From NCBI GenBank assembly GCA_048268245.1, contig JBLWVX010000010.1:1-64000 (forward strand): DNA of 64,000 nt. Direction: 5' to 3'. Under the pieces are notes generated by a model. It saw only the letters and a list, made by a program, of their open reading frames with translations, made no database searches and was not told the origin of the DNA. Positions 16,606 to 63,835 of this stretch are shown piece after piece. How positions within the stretch are numbered: the stretch's first letter is position 1; every line of letters begins with the position of its first letter. This DNA is from Arcobacteraceae bacterium. GTDB lineage: Bacteria; Campylobacterota; Campylobacteria; Campylobacterales; Arcobacteraceae. The position numbers and the translations under genes were made by a program.

Positions 16606-16998
16606 ATGAAAGACTATGATAAATGGAATAAAGTTAAAAAAGAGACTTCAAACCAAAATAACTTCTTTACTTTTAAAGTTAGAGAAATTTATTGGCTAAA
16701 GGTTGGATATAACATAGGATATGAAGTATATGGGAAAGGAGATGACTATTTAAGACCAGTGTTAATTTTAAGAAAATTTAGCAAAGAAAGCTTCTTAGGA
16801 ATTCCTTTAACAAGTTCAACGAAAAAGGATATGTTTCATTATGGATTTTATCCCCTAAATAAAGATAAAAAGAATTATGCCATGCTGTCACAAATAAAAC
16901 TGTTTTCTTCAAAAAGAATACACGATAAAATGGGTAAAATTTCTGTAGAAGATTTTAAAAAGTTAAAAGTAAATTTAAAAGAATTAATTGGATTATAA
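16606..16998 (+). CDS. PemK/MazF-family endoribonuclease toxin, no protein antitoxin
   Basis: EIYW..VGYNIGYEVYGK...RPVLIL...GIPLTS...LSQIK..SSKRI..KMGKI matches the PemK/MazF pattern. Only 75 nt separate it from modB. Confidence 0.85.
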   Translation: MKDYDKWNKVKKETSNQNNFFTFKVREIYWLKVGYNIGYEVYGKGDDYLRPVLILRKFSKESFLGIPLTSSTKKDMFHYGFYPLNKDKKNYAMLSQIKLFSSKRIHDKMGKISVEDFKKLKVNLKELIGL

Positions 16999-17044
16999 AT
17001 ACTCCCCTAAAGATTAGGGGCTTCCTGCAAGCAGGTTGGTTTGT
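16998..17044 (-). ncRNA. Candidate ~45-nt antitoxin RNA, convergent to the MazF-like gene
   Basis: Minus strand reads ACAAACCAA-CCTG(CTTG)CAGG-AAG-CCCCTAA(TCT)TTAGGGG-AGTATT, directly downstream of a consensus promoter. Ends are inferred. Confidence 0.6.
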
Positions 17045-17050
17045 AAGAGA

Positions 17051-17091: not shown

Positions 17092-18873
17092 GTGGAACTT
17101 GTTTATTTATGGATTAAAGATTATAAAAATATAAAGGAGCAAGGGTTTAATTTCTCTCCTAGGTTTGAGTGTAAATATGATAAAGATTCAAATAAGTTGA
17201 CTATTGATGAAAATAAAAAGTATGTTAATATTTTTCCTGAAAATATTAATGTTACTGCTATTGTTGGTGAGAATGGGAGTGGGAAAAGTACTATTTTAAA
17301 ATATATAGCACAATATTTATCATTATTATTAACTAGAATAGATTCAATAGCACTTTCTCCAGATACTTTTATTTTTATTTTTTTTGATAAATTATCAAAT
17401 AATATTTATACTGCAGGAAATGTTCTAGAAGATACTCATATAATAAATAAAACTGTATACAAAACTTTCTCGAATAAGATAGAAACATTTAAGTCAAAGA
17501 AATATATTGATTTTTTAAAAAGTAAAAAACATGATAAAATGATAAGTCTTGATACAAATGAAAGATACAATAACTCTATACATAAACACCTTCTTAAAAA
17601 AAATTTAAACAAATTAATAAATAATTCCTTTACACTCCACTATGATTATTCTTTTAATATGTTTACAAACTATCATAGTGAAACTAATTTTTTATCTGTG
17701 CCTAATAAGGAGTACGATATTTATCAACATCATAATTATGATAAAACTTTATTAGTTGAACACATAATTAATAAGTCATACATTGAAAAAGAGAAAAAAT
17801 ACTTTGAACCAAGTAAACTCTTAATATTGTTTCAGCCACTTAAAAATCTTAAGTTTCAATTTAAACAAAACATGAGTATTAAAGAATTTATGGTGTTTCT
17901 AATTAATAGCAGTATCTTTGAATTATTGAAAAGACAACATAGAAACTTTATCAATAATAAAAATGCTGAAAATAATCCAGAGTTATTAGACAATTTAATA
18001 ACTAATAATATTAAATCAATTAAAGAAATTATAGATAATCAAACAAAACAAGTTCCCTTAGCATATCAACTAAAAGATTTAGTTAATTATCTAAAGATAT
18101 TAAAAAAAACTAATTCTTTAAACATCTTTTCAATTGATAAAGAGTATGAGAGGATAAATATAAATATTAATTATCTTAATGATAATAACATTAAACTTTT
18201 AACACAAATTCCTACTGATATATTAAAGCTAAAAATTTATTCAGATAATTTTGATTATGATGATTTAAGTAATGGAGAAAAATCAGCTCTTAGAATAAGA
18301 TTTTATATTGAAAGAGCAATACAAAATAGCAAAAGAGACAATTATTTTATTTTACTTGATGAAGCTGATAATGAACTACATCCGCAATGGCAAAAAAAGC
18401 TTATTAAATATCTATATGACATTTTTAAAAATAGAAGAGAAACTTTTCATTTTATCTTAACTTCCCACTCACCTTTTATACTTTCAGACTTACCAAAAGA
18501 AAATATAATTTTTCTAGAAAATGGGAAGCAAGAATACCCATTTAAAGATAATGAGCAAACTTTTGGAGCAAATATACATACCCTACTTTCCCATGGTTTT
18601 TTTATGGAAGATGGTCTCATGGGAGAATACGCAAAAGAGAAAATAAATGAAGTTATTGAAATATTAAAGCATGATAGTTTATCTTCTGATGAAATAAAAA
18701 CTTGCAAAGATATTATCTCAATAATTGGTGAGCCAATTTTACAAAAGACCTTACAAAGTCAATTAGATATGAAACTTTATCCAAAAGAAACTCAATTAGA
18801 AAAACTTGAAAGAGAACAAAGAGAAATTCAAGCAGAAATAGATGAGCTAAAGAAAAAAAATGAAACAGATTGA
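17092..18873 (+). CDS. ABC/AAA ATPase, Septu PtuA-like
   Basis: Walker A GENGSGKST, signature LSNGEK, Walker B ILLDEADNELHPQWQ, H-loop TSHSPFILSD, TFGANIHTLL; overlaps an HNH gene. Confidence 0.8.
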   Translation: MELVYLWIKDYKNIKEQGFNFSPRFECKYDKDSNKLTIDENKKYVNIFPENINVTAIVGENGSGKSTILKYIAQYLSLLLTRIDSIALSPDTFIFIFFDKLSNNIYTAGNVLEDTHIINKTVYKTFSNKIETFKSKKYIDFLKSKKHDKMISLDTNERYNNSIHKHLLKKNLNKLINNSFTLHYDYSFNMFTNYHSETNFLSVPNKEYDIYQHHNYDKTLLVEHIINKSYIEKEKKYFEPSKLLILFQPLKNLKFQFKQNMSIKEFMVFLINSSIFELLKRQHRNFINNKNAENNPELLDNLITNNIKSIKEIIDNQTKQVPLAYQLKDLVNYLKILKKTNSLNIFSIDKEYERINININYLNDNNIKLLTQIPTDILKLKIYSDNFDYDDLSNGEKSALRIRFYIERAIQNSKRDNYFILLDEADNELHPQWQKKLIKYLYDIFKNRRETFHFILTSHSPFILSDLPKENIIFLENGKQEYPFKDNEQTFGANIHTLLSHGFFMEDGLMGEYAKEKINEVIEILKHDSLSSDEIKTCKDIISIIGEPILQKTLQSQLDMKLYPKETQLEKLEREQREIQAEIDELKKKNETD

Positions 18874-30496: not shown

Positions 30497-31303
30497 ATGC
30501 TAAAAAATTCAGTAATGAAAGAGCTATCTTTTCAAGAACATAAATTGATATTTAAATACATTCATAAAAAACATACTTTCTCTAAACATATCCATGATGA
30601 TAAATACATGCTAGGAATTTGTTTAGAGGGCAAAAACTATTTTAATATGGACAAGCAAGATTTTGAAGTTACTAAAGGTATGTTATGCCTTATTCCACCA
30701 AATACTGTTCACTCATGTAAAACTACAAATATTGATAATAAATGGCAGTTTCTTACTTGTTTTATACCTAAAGATTTCTTTGAAGAAATTGCAAAAAGTA
30801 TTTGTAATAAAAGTAACTTTACTTTTAAGAACTATTTCATAAAAGATAATGATTTAGCTACTTATTTAGAAAAAATCATTAGAGATACTTTAACTCATGA
30901 AAAAGTTTTTGACAATGACATCATAGACTTCATCACCCTATTTTGTGAAAAATACATGACATATAAAGAAAAAATCAAAACCATTGAAAATGAAAAGTTT
31001 GAAGAGTTATTTAAATTTTTTAAAGAGGAAAAATATGATTTAAAAGAGTTTAGCTTTTATGATATGGCAAAAGTTATGAACATGAACCCTTACTATTTTC
31101 ATAGAGTTTTTTCAAAGTCTATAGGATTAACTCCTCAAACTTTTATAAACTTTTTACGAGTTTCAAAAGCTACAAAACTTTTAACAAACTATGAAAGTTT
31201 GTCACATTTAGCCCTAGAGTGTGGCTTTTATGATCAAGCACATTTTACAAAAGAGTTTAAAAAATATCATGGAGTAACACCTACAAAATATAAGAACATT
31301 TAA
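30497..31303 (+). CDS. AraC family regulator
   Basis: Cupin HIH; CGFYDQAHFTKEFKKYHGVTP. Confidence 0.9.
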   Translation: MLKNSVMKELSFQEHKLIFKYIHKKHTFSKHIHDDKYMLGICLEGKNYFNMDKQDFEVTKGMLCLIPPNTVHSCKTTNIDNKWQFLTCFIPKDFFEEIAKSICNKSNFTFKNYFIKDNDLATYLEKIIRDTLTHEKVFDNDIIDFITLFCEKYMTYKEKIKTIENEKFEELFKFFKEEKYDLKEFSFYDMAKVMNMNPYYFHRVFSKSIGLTPQTFINFLRVSKATKLLTNYESLSHLALECGFYDQAHFTKEFKKYHGVTPTKYKNI

Positions 31304-60700: not shown

Positions 60701-61034
60701 GTACTCCATCAAGCATACCTTTTTCATACATAGTAGTTGCAACATTAAGTGCAGTTTGTCCACCCATAGTAGGTAAAATAGCATCAATGTTCTCTTTTTC
60801 TATGATTTTAGCAACAACCTCTTCAGTAATAGGTTCAATATAAGTTTTATCAGCAAATTCTGGATCAGTCATGATCGTAGCTGGATTTGAATTAATTAAA
60901 ACAACTCTGTATCCTAGTTCTTTTAGCGTTTTAGTAGCTTGTGTACCTGAGTAGTCAAACTCACACGCTTGTCCAATTACGATTGGTCCAGAACCAATAA
61001 GTAAAATAGATTTTATATCTTCTCTTTTTGGCAT
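57795..61034 (-). CDS. carB: Carbamoyl-phosphate synthase large subunit
   Basis: [52 protein letters not shown]. Confidence 0.98.
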
Positions 61035-61132
61035 AAAAAATTCCCCACATGTTTTTTTATAAAATTTGGGAAGTATAGCTAAAAAGGACTTAAACTAGGG
61101 TTACACGAAATGTATAAGAGTTTTTTGTGAGA

Positions 61133-61166
61133 AAAAATAGCATTATATTTTCATAATGCTATTTTT
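61133..61166 (-). terminator. Intrinsic terminator
   Basis: AAAAATAGCATTAT-N6-ATAATGCTATTTTT after the ThiF/MoeB-like gene. Confidence 0.75.
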
Positions 61167-61173
61167 ATATAGT

Positions 61174-61854
61174 TTATGCTGTAGGTAAGTTAAATTTCTT
61201 TGTAGAAATAACACCTTCATCATCAAATGAAAGGTAGTATAAAACATCTTTTTTCACAGGTAATCCAGCTAAATATCTAATAGCTAAGTTTGCTTGTAGT
61301 GAACCTATGTGCATTACAATTGGACAAGCAATACCATTTGGTTTTCTATCATTTACTACAAATACTGCTTCATAAGAAGCTTTTTCAAAGAAACATACTT
61401 GTCCATGGAACTCTTCTACAGAACCATAAATCCAAGCTTGGTTATTTTGAATACAATACTCATTTATAGCTGCTCTACTTGGTAGGTTATCAGTTGCATC
61501 AATAATCAAGTCAAACTCTAAACCTCTTTTTGCAAACTCATCAAAAGATTCATTGTAAGATGTAACTTTAGTATAAGGACATCTTGACTCAACTAACTCT
61601 TTTAAAACCTCACATTTTGGCTTTCCATCATCACCAACTTTAAAACCAATTTGTCTATGAATATTGTGAACACCAACTTCATCAAAATCAACAAAAGCAA
61701 ACTCACCAATACCAGAAGCACCTAAGGCAATACCTAAAGTACACCCTAATCCACCACTACCAATGATAGCTACTTTTTTATTTTGTAATGAGTCTTGAGT
61801 TTCCTCACCCCATAGTTTTATCTGTCTGTTAAAAAATTCATGAATTTCACTCAT
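61174..61854 (-). CDS. ThiF/MoeB/HesA family adenylyltransferase
   Basis: FNRQIKLWG, GSGGLG, DFDEV..HNIHRQ, DATDN. Confidence 0.9.
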   Translation of the reverse strand: MSEIHEFFNRQIKLWGEETQDSLQNKKVAIIGSGGLGCTLGIALGASGIGEFAFVDFDEVGVHNIHRQIGFKVGDDGKPKCEVLKELVESRCPYTKVTSYNESFDEFAKRGLEFDLIIDATDNLPSRAAINEYCIQNNQAWIYGSVEEFHGQVCFFEKASYEAVFVVNDRKPNGIACPIVMHIGSLQANLAIRYLAGLPVKKDVLYYLSFDDEGVISTKKFNLPTA

Positions 61855-62164
61855 GCTTAATCCTTAGTAAATAAGTAAAGTTTATAAAAATTATATTATG
61901 ATGTAATGATAACACATTTAGATTAAATTTCTTTGACTTGAATCAATAATAATCTTGATAAATTCTATATACTTTTATTTATTTGTAATACTATTCAATT
62001 GGGTTATTATTATAAATTTTAGATATATCATAAATATCACTTCGATAACTTTTTCTAATTTATTTTCAAATTCACTATTACCATTTTCATTTACTCTATG
62101 TTTTAAATGAAATAAAGCTACATTTTTATTTATATCTTCTACATTATCTGTGTTTATTGAATAG

Positions 62165-62270
62165 TTATAAAACTGCTAAATGTTCATAATCTTATAAGAT
62201 TTTGGCTTCCTAGCTTTAGAAGTTTTTCCCTTGGTTTGTCTATATTTTCAAGTTTTTTTATACTACTCAT
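62165..62270 (-). pseudogene. radC: RadC N-terminal fragment
   Basis: MSSIKKLENIDKPREKLLKLGSQNL, then a +1 frameshift to DYEHLAVL*. Confidence 0.7.
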
Positions 62271-62283
62271 GACTATACCTTAT

Positions 62284-62312
62284 TTGACAAAAATATTTTA
62301 CTATGTTATGAT
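62284..62312 (+). promoter_or_regulatory. sigma70 promoter convergent to the toxin remnant
   Basis: TTGACA (62284-62289), 17-nt spacer, TATGAT (62307-62312) with extended TGn. Confidence 0.7.
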
Positions 62313-62317
62313 TTTTT

Positions 62318-62362
62318 ATAATTCGCCTACGGGCACACCCACTTTTTTAAGTGGGGCTAATT
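62318..62362 (+). ncRNA. Second candidate two-hairpin antitoxin RNA
   Basis: ATAATTC-GCC(TACG)GGC-ACA-CCCACTT(TTTT)AAGTGGG-GCTAATT. Ends are inferred. Confidence 0.55.
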
Positions 62363-62460
62363 AAATCTTTAGACTTACTAATCACTATTTTAAAATCATT
62401 TGTATTTGTAGTTTTTTTGATGACATTCCAATCATCAAAAGTTTGCGTGAGTGTTTTCAT
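62347..62460 (-). pseudogene. Internally deleted PemK/MazF-like toxin remnant
   Basis: MKTLTQTFDDWNVIKKTTNTNDFKIVISKSKDLISPT* with RBS GGAGG. Its ends match YDKWNKVKK and DFKKLKVNLKELI of 16606-16998. Confidence 0.7.
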
Positions 62461-62521
62461 AAACTCCTCCTATATAGAAGAAGTTTATCTAAATTTTTAT
62501 AATAATATTATAAGTTATATA

Positions 62522-62725
62522 TTAGTTTTTATTTTCAGTAGTGAAGATAAGTTTTGCTTCATCTAAAAGCTTTTGAGCCTCATCTAGTTCTTTCATTCCA
62601 TTTTTATATACATCTAGTGAATCACTTAGTGTGATTTCTGGATTTGAAAGTTTATCTAAAAGATTTTTTGCTTTTATTATTTTGTCTTCAAATACTAATT
62701 TTTCTTCTTTTATTTCTTCGCTCAT
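62522..62725 (-). CDS. xseB: Exodeoxyribonuclease VII small subunit
   Basis: FEDKI...L.....ITLSDSLDVYKNGM...AQKLLDEAKL. Confidence 0.9.
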   Translation of the reverse strand: MSEEIKEEKLVFEDKIIKAKNLLDKLSNPEITLSDSLDVYKNGMKELDEAQKLLDEAKLIFTTENKN

Positions 62726-62728
62726 TTA

Positions 62729-63835
62729 TTATTTTCCTTTTAAAATATCTCTTACATGGTCTTCAAACTTCTCAACCTCAACTAAGAATGAATCATGTCC
62801 AGATTGACTATCAACCATTTTATAAGTTACTTGATCTTGCTTTCCAAGTTTTATCATAATATCTCTTATCTCTTCCATCTCTTCAGGGAAGAAAAGCATA
62901 TCATCTTTAAAAGATATAAGATGTAAATTACACTTTACTTTATCAAAAGAGTCTTCTAGTTTATCTTTATTTCTTCCTGCATCAAAAATATTCATTGTCT
63001 TACAGATATAAAGATATGATAGTGGGTCAAAAAACTTAGGAAAACTATATGAGTTATATTCTAAGTATCTCTCAACTTCAAATCTACCAAATAGTTCATA
63101 TAAACCATCAGTTCTAGCATACTCTCTACCGAACTTAGTATTAAAAAGTTCTGGACTTAAATATGCTATTAAACCTGCCATTCTTCCTATTGCTAAACCT
63201 GGTAAACCTTGTGCTTGTAAATCATCTGGGTCATAAAAACCATCTTTGAAAGCTGGGTCATGTCTAATTGATTCTATTGCTATTTTATTTATGGCAATTG
63301 CCCAAGGTCTTGTATAAGCAGTAGTTGCCATAGCTATAACTGTATCTGTAAAATCAGGTTGTTCTATAGAATAACAAAGTGCTTGCATTCCACCCATAGA
63401 ACCACCAATAACAGCTACAGCTTTTTTAATCCCAAGTCTATCATAAAGTCTCATTTGAGCTCTTACAACATCTGAAATAGTAAGTATAGGAAACTTAAAT
63501 CTATACTCTTTTCCAGTTGAAGGATCAATACTTAGAGGGTTTGTAGACCCAAAAGTACTTCCTATGTTATTTGAACAAATAACAAAATATTTTGTAGTAT
63601 CTATTACTTTACCATCACCTATAAACTTATCCCACCATCCAGGCTTTGCTTCATTTGCATATCTTCCTGCTGCATGATGTGATCCTGCTAGTGCATGACA
63701 AATTACAATAACATTTGATTTATCCTCATTTAGCTCTCCATAAGTCTCATATACCAACTCAAAAGACTCTAAAATCCTACCACTTTCTAAATGTAAAGGT
63801 TCATCAAATTTTTCAGTTTTAGTCTCTATTCTCAA
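62729..63835 (-). CDS. metX: Homoserine O-acetyltransferase
   Basis: CHALAG, GWWD, GGSMGGMQA, GHDSFL; TTG start. Confidence 0.93.
   Translation of the reverse strand: MRIETKTEKFDEPLHLESGRILESFELVYETYGELNEDKSNVIVICHALAGSHHAAGRYANEAKPGWWDKFIGDGKVIDTTKYFVICSNNIGSTFGSTNPLSIDPSTGKEYRFKFPILTISDVVRAQMRLYDRLGIKKAVAVIGGSMGGMQALCYSIEQPDFTDTVIAMATTAYTRPWAIAINKIAIESIRHDPAFKDGFYDPDDLQAQGLPGLAIGRMAGLIAYLSPELFNTKFGREYARTDGLYELFGRFEVERYLEYNSYSFPKFFDPLSYLYICKTMNIFDAGRNKDKLEDSFDKVKCNLHLISFKDDMLFFPEEMEEIRDIMIKLGKQDQVTYKMVDSQSGHDSFLVEVEKFEDHVRDILKGK

Follow-up and report, generated by a model that had tools for sequence, protein, structure and literature searches.

MazF/PemK proteins are textbook protein-neutralised (type II) toxins. 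Convergent antisense RNAs that overlap the 3' end of the toxin gene are known from the type I systems txpA/RatA and bsrG/SR4 of Bacillus subtilis and par of Enterococcus faecalis, and the Rfam pemK RNA motif is a cis element located upstream of pemK genes in Firmicutes. On the Campylobacter jejuni plasmid pVir, CjrA/CjpT is said to form a type I pair (reportedly the work of Shen et al. in 2016); CjpT is probably pVir0047 and CjrA presumably the small RNA CJpv3. Two open papers cite Shen 2016 for CjrA as a type I antisense RNA antitoxin on pVir, and PMC10470494 applies this description to CjrA of strain 81-176.

Transcription at these C. jejuni loci has been mapped by dRNA-seq. A transcription start site (TSS) at 31119 on the minus strand of pVir, antisense to pVir0047, has a step height of 16164, and that of the toxin's own TSS is 28 (Dugar et al., 2013). 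The sRNA CJpv3 spans 31119-31043 (77 nt) and was detected on Northern blots (Dugar et al., 2013, Table S12). Strain RM1221 has a TSS at 1367803 that is antisense to CJE1470 (Dugar et al., 2013), the MazF-like gene of CJIE4. We found that pVir0047 (30634-31038), annotated as a PemK/MazF family toxin, faces a convergent TTGATT-17-TATAAT promoter and that CJpv3 ends 5 nt short of the pVir0047 stop codon, in a GC-rich hairpin. Both C. jejuni TSSs lie 7 nt past the -10 element predicted from the sequence, which is an extended -10 in RM1221. Cjpv2 was ruled out as the RNA partner of the toxin, as it is encoded ~5 kb away from it on pVir.

We compared this arrangement with a locus in a window of 64,000 nucleotides, the whole stretch of DNA analysed here, which comes from contig C10 of a 2.68-Mb Arcobacteraceae genome. 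The locus lies in a 667-bp interval between a ThiF/MoeB-like gene (61174-61854, minus strand) and xseB (62522-62725, minus strand). A second, intact locus lies elsewhere in the window. The features of both are as follows.

62284-62312, plus strand: sigma-70-type promoter TTGACA-17-TATGAT (TTGACA 62284-62289, 17-nt spacer, TG-extended TATGAT 62307-62312, consensus score 11/12), predicted to drive the small RNA and pointing at the toxin remnant
62319-62365, plus strand: predicted small RNA, RNA2, from covariance model R1 and folding, with both ends inferred
62325-62334, plus strand: hairpin B, GCC(UACG)GGC with a UNCG-type tetraloop, from folding
62338-62355, plus strand: hairpin A, CCCACUU/AAGUGGG, a 7-bp stem with a UUUU loop, from folding; the remnant ORF has its stop codon within this hairpin, on the opposite strand
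62347-62460, minus strand: 37-codon PemK/MazF-family toxin remnant, MKTLTQTFDDWNVIKKTTNTNDFKIVISKSKDLISPT, assigned by orthology to a 138-aa gene of genome G002
62464-62470, minus strand: GGAGGAG, ribosome-binding site of the remnant ORF; the same leader serves radC in genome G001
62184-62270, minus strand: 28-codon radC remnant (UPF0758_N; PF20582 with a sub-cutoff E of 5.6e-4), adjacent to the cassette and outside the module
16606-16998, plus strand: intact toxin 1, 130 aa, MazF fold with an N-terminal helix (PF02452 36.1 bits, cutoff 23.1)
17079-17051, minus strand: locus-1 convergent promoter TTGACA-17-TATAAT, facing toxin 1
16984-17050, minus strand: RNA1, an R1 match

A first-pass annotation of the window had described a 37-codon ORF with a GGAGG ribosome-binding site, faced by TTGACA-17-TATGAT and followed by a UACG tetraloop hairpin, a 3-nt linker and a 7-bp hairpin. 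Each of these elements was found in place, the linker reading ACA; only the leader, which had been called A-rich, is better described as U/A-rich (UAAUUC). The promoter sequence is rare in this DNA: TTGACA-N17-TATRAT occurs at two sites on both strands of the 64-kb window versus 0.08 expected, each site faces a PemK locus, and two matches were attained in 0/100 shuffles of the window. The hairpins fold with -16.4 kcal/mol (z = -4.25), and an equally good fold was seen in 0/200 shuffles. We placed the start of RNA2 ~7 nt past the -10 element and its 3' end just past hairpin A by analogy with CJpv3; the 3' end is uncertain, because a clear U tract is absent after hairpin A and the corresponding tail in Patescibacteria is A-rich.

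Taken alone, the remnant ORF gave no Pfam match, and BLASTP against the 130-aa toxin 1 aligned its N-terminus with 9/17 identities (E 2e-4) and its C-terminus weakly (E 0.56). Its membership of the PemK family follows from orthology. A DNA search of 41 related genomes recovered the same interval in the same-genus genome G002 with 86-92% identity and ~300 extra bases; there, a full 138-aa PemK_toxin protein (26.0 bits versus a cutoff of 23.1) is encoded between xseB and radC. The remnant corresponds to the first ~20 and last ~16 residues of this protein, and the 101 codons between them are gone through an in-frame internal deletion of 303 bp, whose junction, as taken from the flanks and the protein comparison, lies near 62398-62403. 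In G002 both deletion edges carry TTTTATTT-like short repeats, and the -10 element of the orthologous module reads TATAAT where the window has TATGAT; over the 75 nt from promoter to hairpin A, the two sequences differ at 3 positions. Among the deleted residues are an Arg and a Thr aligned with R25 and T48 of B. subtilis MazF (EndoA), which we take to be its catalytic residues. Since the aligned catalytic Arg and Thr/Ser both lie in the deleted part, the remnant cannot be active. At the level of sequence, these comparisons confirm the ORF at 62347-62460 (minus strand) as a PemK/MazF-family toxin gene gutted by an internal deletion. The first-pass annotation had proposed that the N- and C-terminus of a PemK-derived toxin are kept and the catalytic core is lost, and had suggested looking for a full-length toxin next to xseB in relatives; the G002 gene, at the same site and above the PF02452 cutoff, and BLASTP agree in bearing this out.

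A third state of the site was seen in genome G001 (L149, G001:C1:1419700-1421400, 757-820), which is empty: exactly the stretch between the start codons of toxin and radC is missing, and toxin, RNA and promoter with it, so that the xseB-proximal leader and its GGAGGAG run directly into radC. This joint absence indicates that toxin, RNA and promoter come and go as one cassette. The radC gene of the window is dead, due to a 1-nt insertion followed by truncation, and G001 and G002 keep a 220-aa radC (L149 818-1480; L004 939-1601). A metagenome contig (run X2) that matches xseB turns unrelated on the cassette side of 62522 and carries another GC-rich hairpin; the xseB-proximal site thus seems variable between strains. 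Assembled contigs of runs X1, X2, X10 and X12 aligned to 61000-63500 left 61924-62511 uncovered; such contigs carry no information on transcript starts or strand.

Locus 1 shows the same geometry with a different primary sequence, as the first-pass annotation had noted and as our comparison of the promoters and of both hairpins affirmed. The hairpins of RNA1 are CCUG(CUUG)CAGG and CCCCUAA/UUAGGGG, separated by the linker AAG. The gene after toxin 1 (17092-18873, plus strand) encodes an ATPase of 593 aa with a match to PADLOC PDC-M62A (E 6e-107) and weaker ones to Septu PtuA models; because of this adjoining ATPase, toxin 1 stands at the edge of a candidate defence locus. A third PemK paralogue of the same genome (G000:C13:28110-28496; L002 1501-1893) has 43% identity to toxin 1; in its DxWN motif, precisely the codon of the invariant Trp reads TGA. 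Translation from an internal ATG could nevertheless give a 101-aa product above the Pfam cutoff, and the paralogue's convergent promoter TTGCAT-17-TATAAT and RNA are intact. To the mRNA of toxin 1 or toxin 3, RNA2 is complementary over no more than 9 consecutive nt. Judged by these sequences, cross-neutralisation of toxin 1 by base pairing with RNA2 looks unlikely, and with so little contiguous complementarity RNA2 has no living target under a pairing mechanism.

The toxin itself belongs to the MazF fold. The AF2 model of toxin 1 (pLDDT 77.8) gave the MazF structures of S. aureus, M. tuberculosis, E. coli and B. subtilis as top Foldseek matches with a probability of 1.00 and TM values of 0.62-0.79, and a profile search of the PDB matched EndoA (E 1.9e-4). 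R50-P51 is invariant in 20/20 aligned toxins, the Thr/Ser of a PLT motif aligns with T48, and an extra N-terminal helix carries an invariant W-N...K motif. With pVir0047, toxin 1 has 39.7% identity over residues 4-117 (E 1e-15). A candidate protein antitoxin was not apparent: a screen upstream of 93 distinct loci found no recurrent small ORF, and the gaps of 61-100 nt before the toxins are devoid of ORFs. The commonest upstream neighbours were radC (9 loci), an HsdM-like gene (7) and another PemK gene (5). RadC-like proteins account for 9/80 upstream ORFs, and there may be a recurring PemK-RadC neighbourhood. Models of type III toxins did not recognise the protein either (best NCBIfam match TenpIN, 15.4 bits versus a cutoff of 90), PADLOC gave no match for the toxin, and tandem repeats were found at neither window locus.

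We asked how far the RNA unit accompanies the toxin. Homologous loci were collected from 65/184 genomes of the family and from the best 80 of 457 relatives (one genome per species, bacteria). The covariance model R1 was built from an alignment of 31 distinct RNAs (A1) and is trained on Arcobacteraceae. In the 2.68-Mb genome it produced exactly three matches, which coincide with the 3/3 PemK loci at the 3' end of the toxin; RNA2 was the top match (62312-62372, 73.2 bits, E 2e-13). In 80 loci of other genomes it gave 61 matches, all 61 antisense at the toxin 3' end. The neighbouring genes differ from locus to locus. Together with the joint absence in G001, these data link the RNA to the toxin and not to the Septu-like genes, which is the association that the first-pass annotation had drawn from the two window loci. 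R1 gave no match in the pVir RNA, and the connection with CJpv3 is therefore based on the homology of the toxins and the common layout.

The same association was obtained with a rule-based detector that looks, in the region past the toxin stop codon, for a promoter scoring at least 9/12, followed by a hairpin of 3-6 bp and a second one of 5 bp or longer. It was positive in 80/100 distinct homologue regions from Campylobacterota and Patescibacteria, in 0/100 of their reverse complements and in 0/500 shuffles. The detector is blind to regions with a weak promoter or with a toxin ORF that continues across the hairpins; by eye, ~14 of the 20 missed regions still have the elements and ~6 are without them. 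The spacer measures 17 nt in 65 of the 80 detected modules, and in most of them the promoter sits 9-15 nt from hairpin B. In 28/80 the toxin stop codon falls within hairpin A, which means that mRNA and sRNA must overlap there. The 5' leader follows the consensus YAYAAWU, often ACAAUU, with the variants ACAA, AUAA and CUAA. A few toxins are without a detectable RNA or promoter downstream (L051, L057 (1501), L065 (1501), L063, L112), three of them directly after an HsdM-like gene.

The first-pass annotation had also suggested aligning the RNAs structurally, and this revealed two helices common to both window loci and their relatives. In A1, 91.4% of the cells pair versus 36-60% when the partner is slid, compensatory changes occur in 5/10 pairs, and RNAalifold recovers the same two helices. 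In alignment A4, which was fitted to the model, 94.8% of the cells pair and 9/10 pairs show compensatory changes, including all 7 pairs of hairpin A. The helix of hairpin B is kept in 93.5-95.5% of the cells, and its outer pair alternates between U-A and G-C. Rfam 15 contained no relevant family for 61800-62800 at E up to 10, nor for the window locus and six others at E up to 1. The open literature on PemK/MazF, RNA antitoxins, orphan toxins and type III systems yielded no MazF-fold family with a convergent structured RNA, and the names 'cjpT' and 'CJpv3' had no relevant match among the open papers searched.

The module ranges over Arcobacteraceae, Sulfurimonas, Sulfuricurvum, Sulfurovum, Sulfurospirillum, Hydrogenimonas and Nitratiruptor, and is also found on Helicobacter and Campylobacter plasmids, in CJIE4 prophages and in several lineages of Patescibacteria. 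Patescibacterial loci (L091, L093, L096-L098, L100, L108, L110, L120, L121) have TTGACx-16/17-TAxxxT, an ACAAAU leader and two hairpins. Their loops are different (AUUA, AUUC, ACAUA), a third hairpin often follows, and R1 misses most of them. A divergent, longer PemK branch (L127 843-1340, minus strand; L128; genomes G157 and G154) consists of 166-aa proteins with a PF02452 E of 3e-14 that the toxin-1 query did not pick up; the RNA copies with the highest scores belong to this branch, in which an additional hairpin separates hairpin A from the stop codon of the toxin.

The state of the window locus, RNA without toxin, is not exceptional. Scanning 151 family genomes with R1 gave 85 RNA places, a count inflated by one as two identical promoter and RNA copies that flank a run of N in G098 (L143 793-901, G098:C49) represent a single element, and 19 of these places had no toxin match alongside. 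Examination of 16 of the 19 showed toxin fragments only in 8, one of them a fusion of N-terminus to C-terminus like the window remnant, nothing in 6, and a divergent full 166-aa PemK toxin in 2. Further RNA places adjoin toxins with stop codons or frameshifts. Toxins without the RNA amounted, by eye, to ~6/100 loci; this asymmetry is subject to the bias that loci from which both partners were lost are invisible to the search. That one partner can stand alone and the other cannot is the signature expected of an antitoxin. The antitoxin role of the RNA and the order of decay proposed in the first-pass annotation are thereby supported indirectly, through this asymmetry and the published transcription of homologues. 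The decayed window locus is an ordinary end state of the module. The whole interval is decaying, as the broken radC shows, and the 75-bp RNA element may be intact by chance rather than by selection.

We consider it likely that the locus is an orphan RNA antitoxin of a CjrA/CjpT-like module of type I style, its transcription, antitoxin function and mechanism being the conjectural part. The ancestral cassette of ~0.5 kb would have consisted of a gene for a MazF/PemK-fold endoribonuclease toxin and a convergent small RNA gene. In intact cassettes the near-consensus promoter would give rise to an abundant RNA of ~45-80 nt, in which a short 5' leader precedes a small hairpin of high stability and, after a brief linker, a longer hairpin rich in GC. 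This RNA is complementary in full to the 3'-terminal part of the toxin mRNA, in many cases with the stop codon included, and would act as the antitoxin by pairing there and keeping toxin synthesis low, as in 3'-overlapping type I systems, among which CjrA/CjpT has been placed. This site of pairing is favoured because of the full complementarity and of the stop codon within hairpin A in 28/80 loci. Pairing of the sRNA in trans with the 5' UTR/RBS of the toxin found no support, as a cognate-specific signal was not detected (-15.8 versus -15.6 kcal/mol, p = 0.34). In the window, deletion between short T-rich repeats has removed 101 codons including the catalytic core and left the RNA gene intact, which would make the locus an orphan antitoxin. 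The orphan RNA is probably a neutral leftover here, and possibly a protection against re-addiction by a like cassette.

A different partner for the RNA would be the toxin protein itself. The RNA might bind it directly in a type III-like manner, with the leader and the rigid hairpin lying in the RNA groove of MazF as a mimic of substrate or product, and the antisense position would then be incidental. We regard this as unlikely. It would explain why the two-hairpin geometry, the linker and the leader are conserved over two phyla despite changed stems, which a pure antisense RNA would not need. The closest solved relatives of the toxin are the MazF proteins of B. subtilis and S. aureus, which cut U^ACAU, and with direct binding the RNA-only loci might still neutralise related toxins. 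However, ToxI-like tandem repeats are missing, the toxin lies outside the type III families by the TenpIN score given above, and the leader is variable (ACAA, AUAA, CUAA) and coincides in part with the start site and a -10-like hexamer, an overlap that could account for its conservation. Moreover, its pVir counterpart AAUUCC is upstream of the mapped TSS, and CjrA is described as type I. The boldest form of this idea is similarly unlikely: a large MazF branch, on chromosomes, plasmids and prophages of Campylobacterota and Patescibacteria, would have swapped its protein antitoxin for a conserved structured RNA absent from Rfam that neutralises the toxin protein directly, the conserved 5' leader, which begins at the transcription start, serving as a substrate mimic that resists cleavage and is held by the UNCG hairpin, and the RNA-only loci, that of the window among them, being kept as immunity against incoming cassettes.

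The hairpins might instead simply terminate transcription, of the toxin gene in general and of the metX-xseB operon in the window, with the facing promoter insulating or tuning the locus without neutralising the toxin and their survival reflecting terminator function. GC-rich hairpins right after a stop codon are typical of terminators, terminators covary too, the reverse strand of the hairpin region also folds (-14.4 kcal/mol, z = -2.5), and the hairpins are the first strong structure after xseB in the window. Yet this leaves unexplained the near-consensus promoter, of a form confined to these loci in the genome, with its fixed 17-nt spacing and, in most of the 80 detected modules, a set distance of 9-15 nt to hairpin B, as well as a pVir transcript that is ~577x the toxin's own at the start site (16164 versus 28). 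RNA units also persist without an upstream gene (L133, L136-L139, L141), G001 does without the element after xseB, and the MazF-fold toxins are solitary, without a protein antitoxin in the upstream screen of 93 loci; we judge the terminator reading improbable. That an AT-rich intergenic stretch mimics a promoter, two hairpins and a short ORF by chance can practically be dismissed. Short ORFs and looser promoter-like sites are indeed common here (11 observed versus 13.5 expected in 2 kb), but the full-gene orthologue, the R1 E of 2e-13, the 0/500 shuffles and the two consensus promoters versus 0.08 expected refute it.

The preferred reading, an orphan RNA antitoxin of a type I-style module, can be set against the known systems. 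The pVir0047/CJpv3 pair shares with the window module a homologous toxin (pVir0047) without an annotated adjacent protein antitoxin, a convergent promoter and an sRNA that ends at the toxin 3' end. Its RNA cannot be aligned with RNA2, is longer and has about three hairpins instead of two, and the pVir module is plasmid-borne and intact, whereas the window module is chromosomal and its toxin deleted. txpA/RatA, bsrG/SR4 and par resemble the module in the strong promoter that faces the toxin gene and in complementarity confined to the 3' end of the toxin mRNA. Their toxins, in contrast, are hydrophobic peptides of <60 aa, and the module toxin is a soluble MazF-fold RNase of 130-138 aa. With respect to the definition of type I, the module thus has an antisense RNA gene complementary to the toxin mRNA and lacks the small hydrophobic (membrane) peptide toxin, which is usual in type I but not universal. 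ToxIN, CptIN and TenpIN (type III) likewise combine an endoribonuclease toxin with a structured RNA partner; their RNAs are tandem repeats upstream, as opposed to a single convergent RNA downstream, and the module toxin scores below all type III cutoffs. The Rfam pemK motif is also a structure associated with pemK-family genes, whereas the module RNA lies downstream on the opposite strand, has its own promoter and is without a match in Rfam 15.

The module resembles MazEF/PemIK (type II) in its toxin fold and in the Arg and Thr that are likely catalytic. It differs in the extra N-terminal helix, in the RNA partner and in having no MazE/PemI-like gene upstream (93 loci). Annotation labels the module toxin genes 'type II'. 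Since a whole MazF sub-family is without a protein partner in the upstream screen and has a conserved convergent RNA gene instead, with 457 relatives in one genome per species, this label and counts of 'orphan toxins' are misleading. The RNA is a definable family, with two covarying helices, its own promoter and no Rfam match, that could be modelled and annotated, and the window relic provides, together with ~14 similar relics, natural evidence on which partner is the antidote. The module class is widespread and poorly described, and it is known, if at all, from one plasmid pair.
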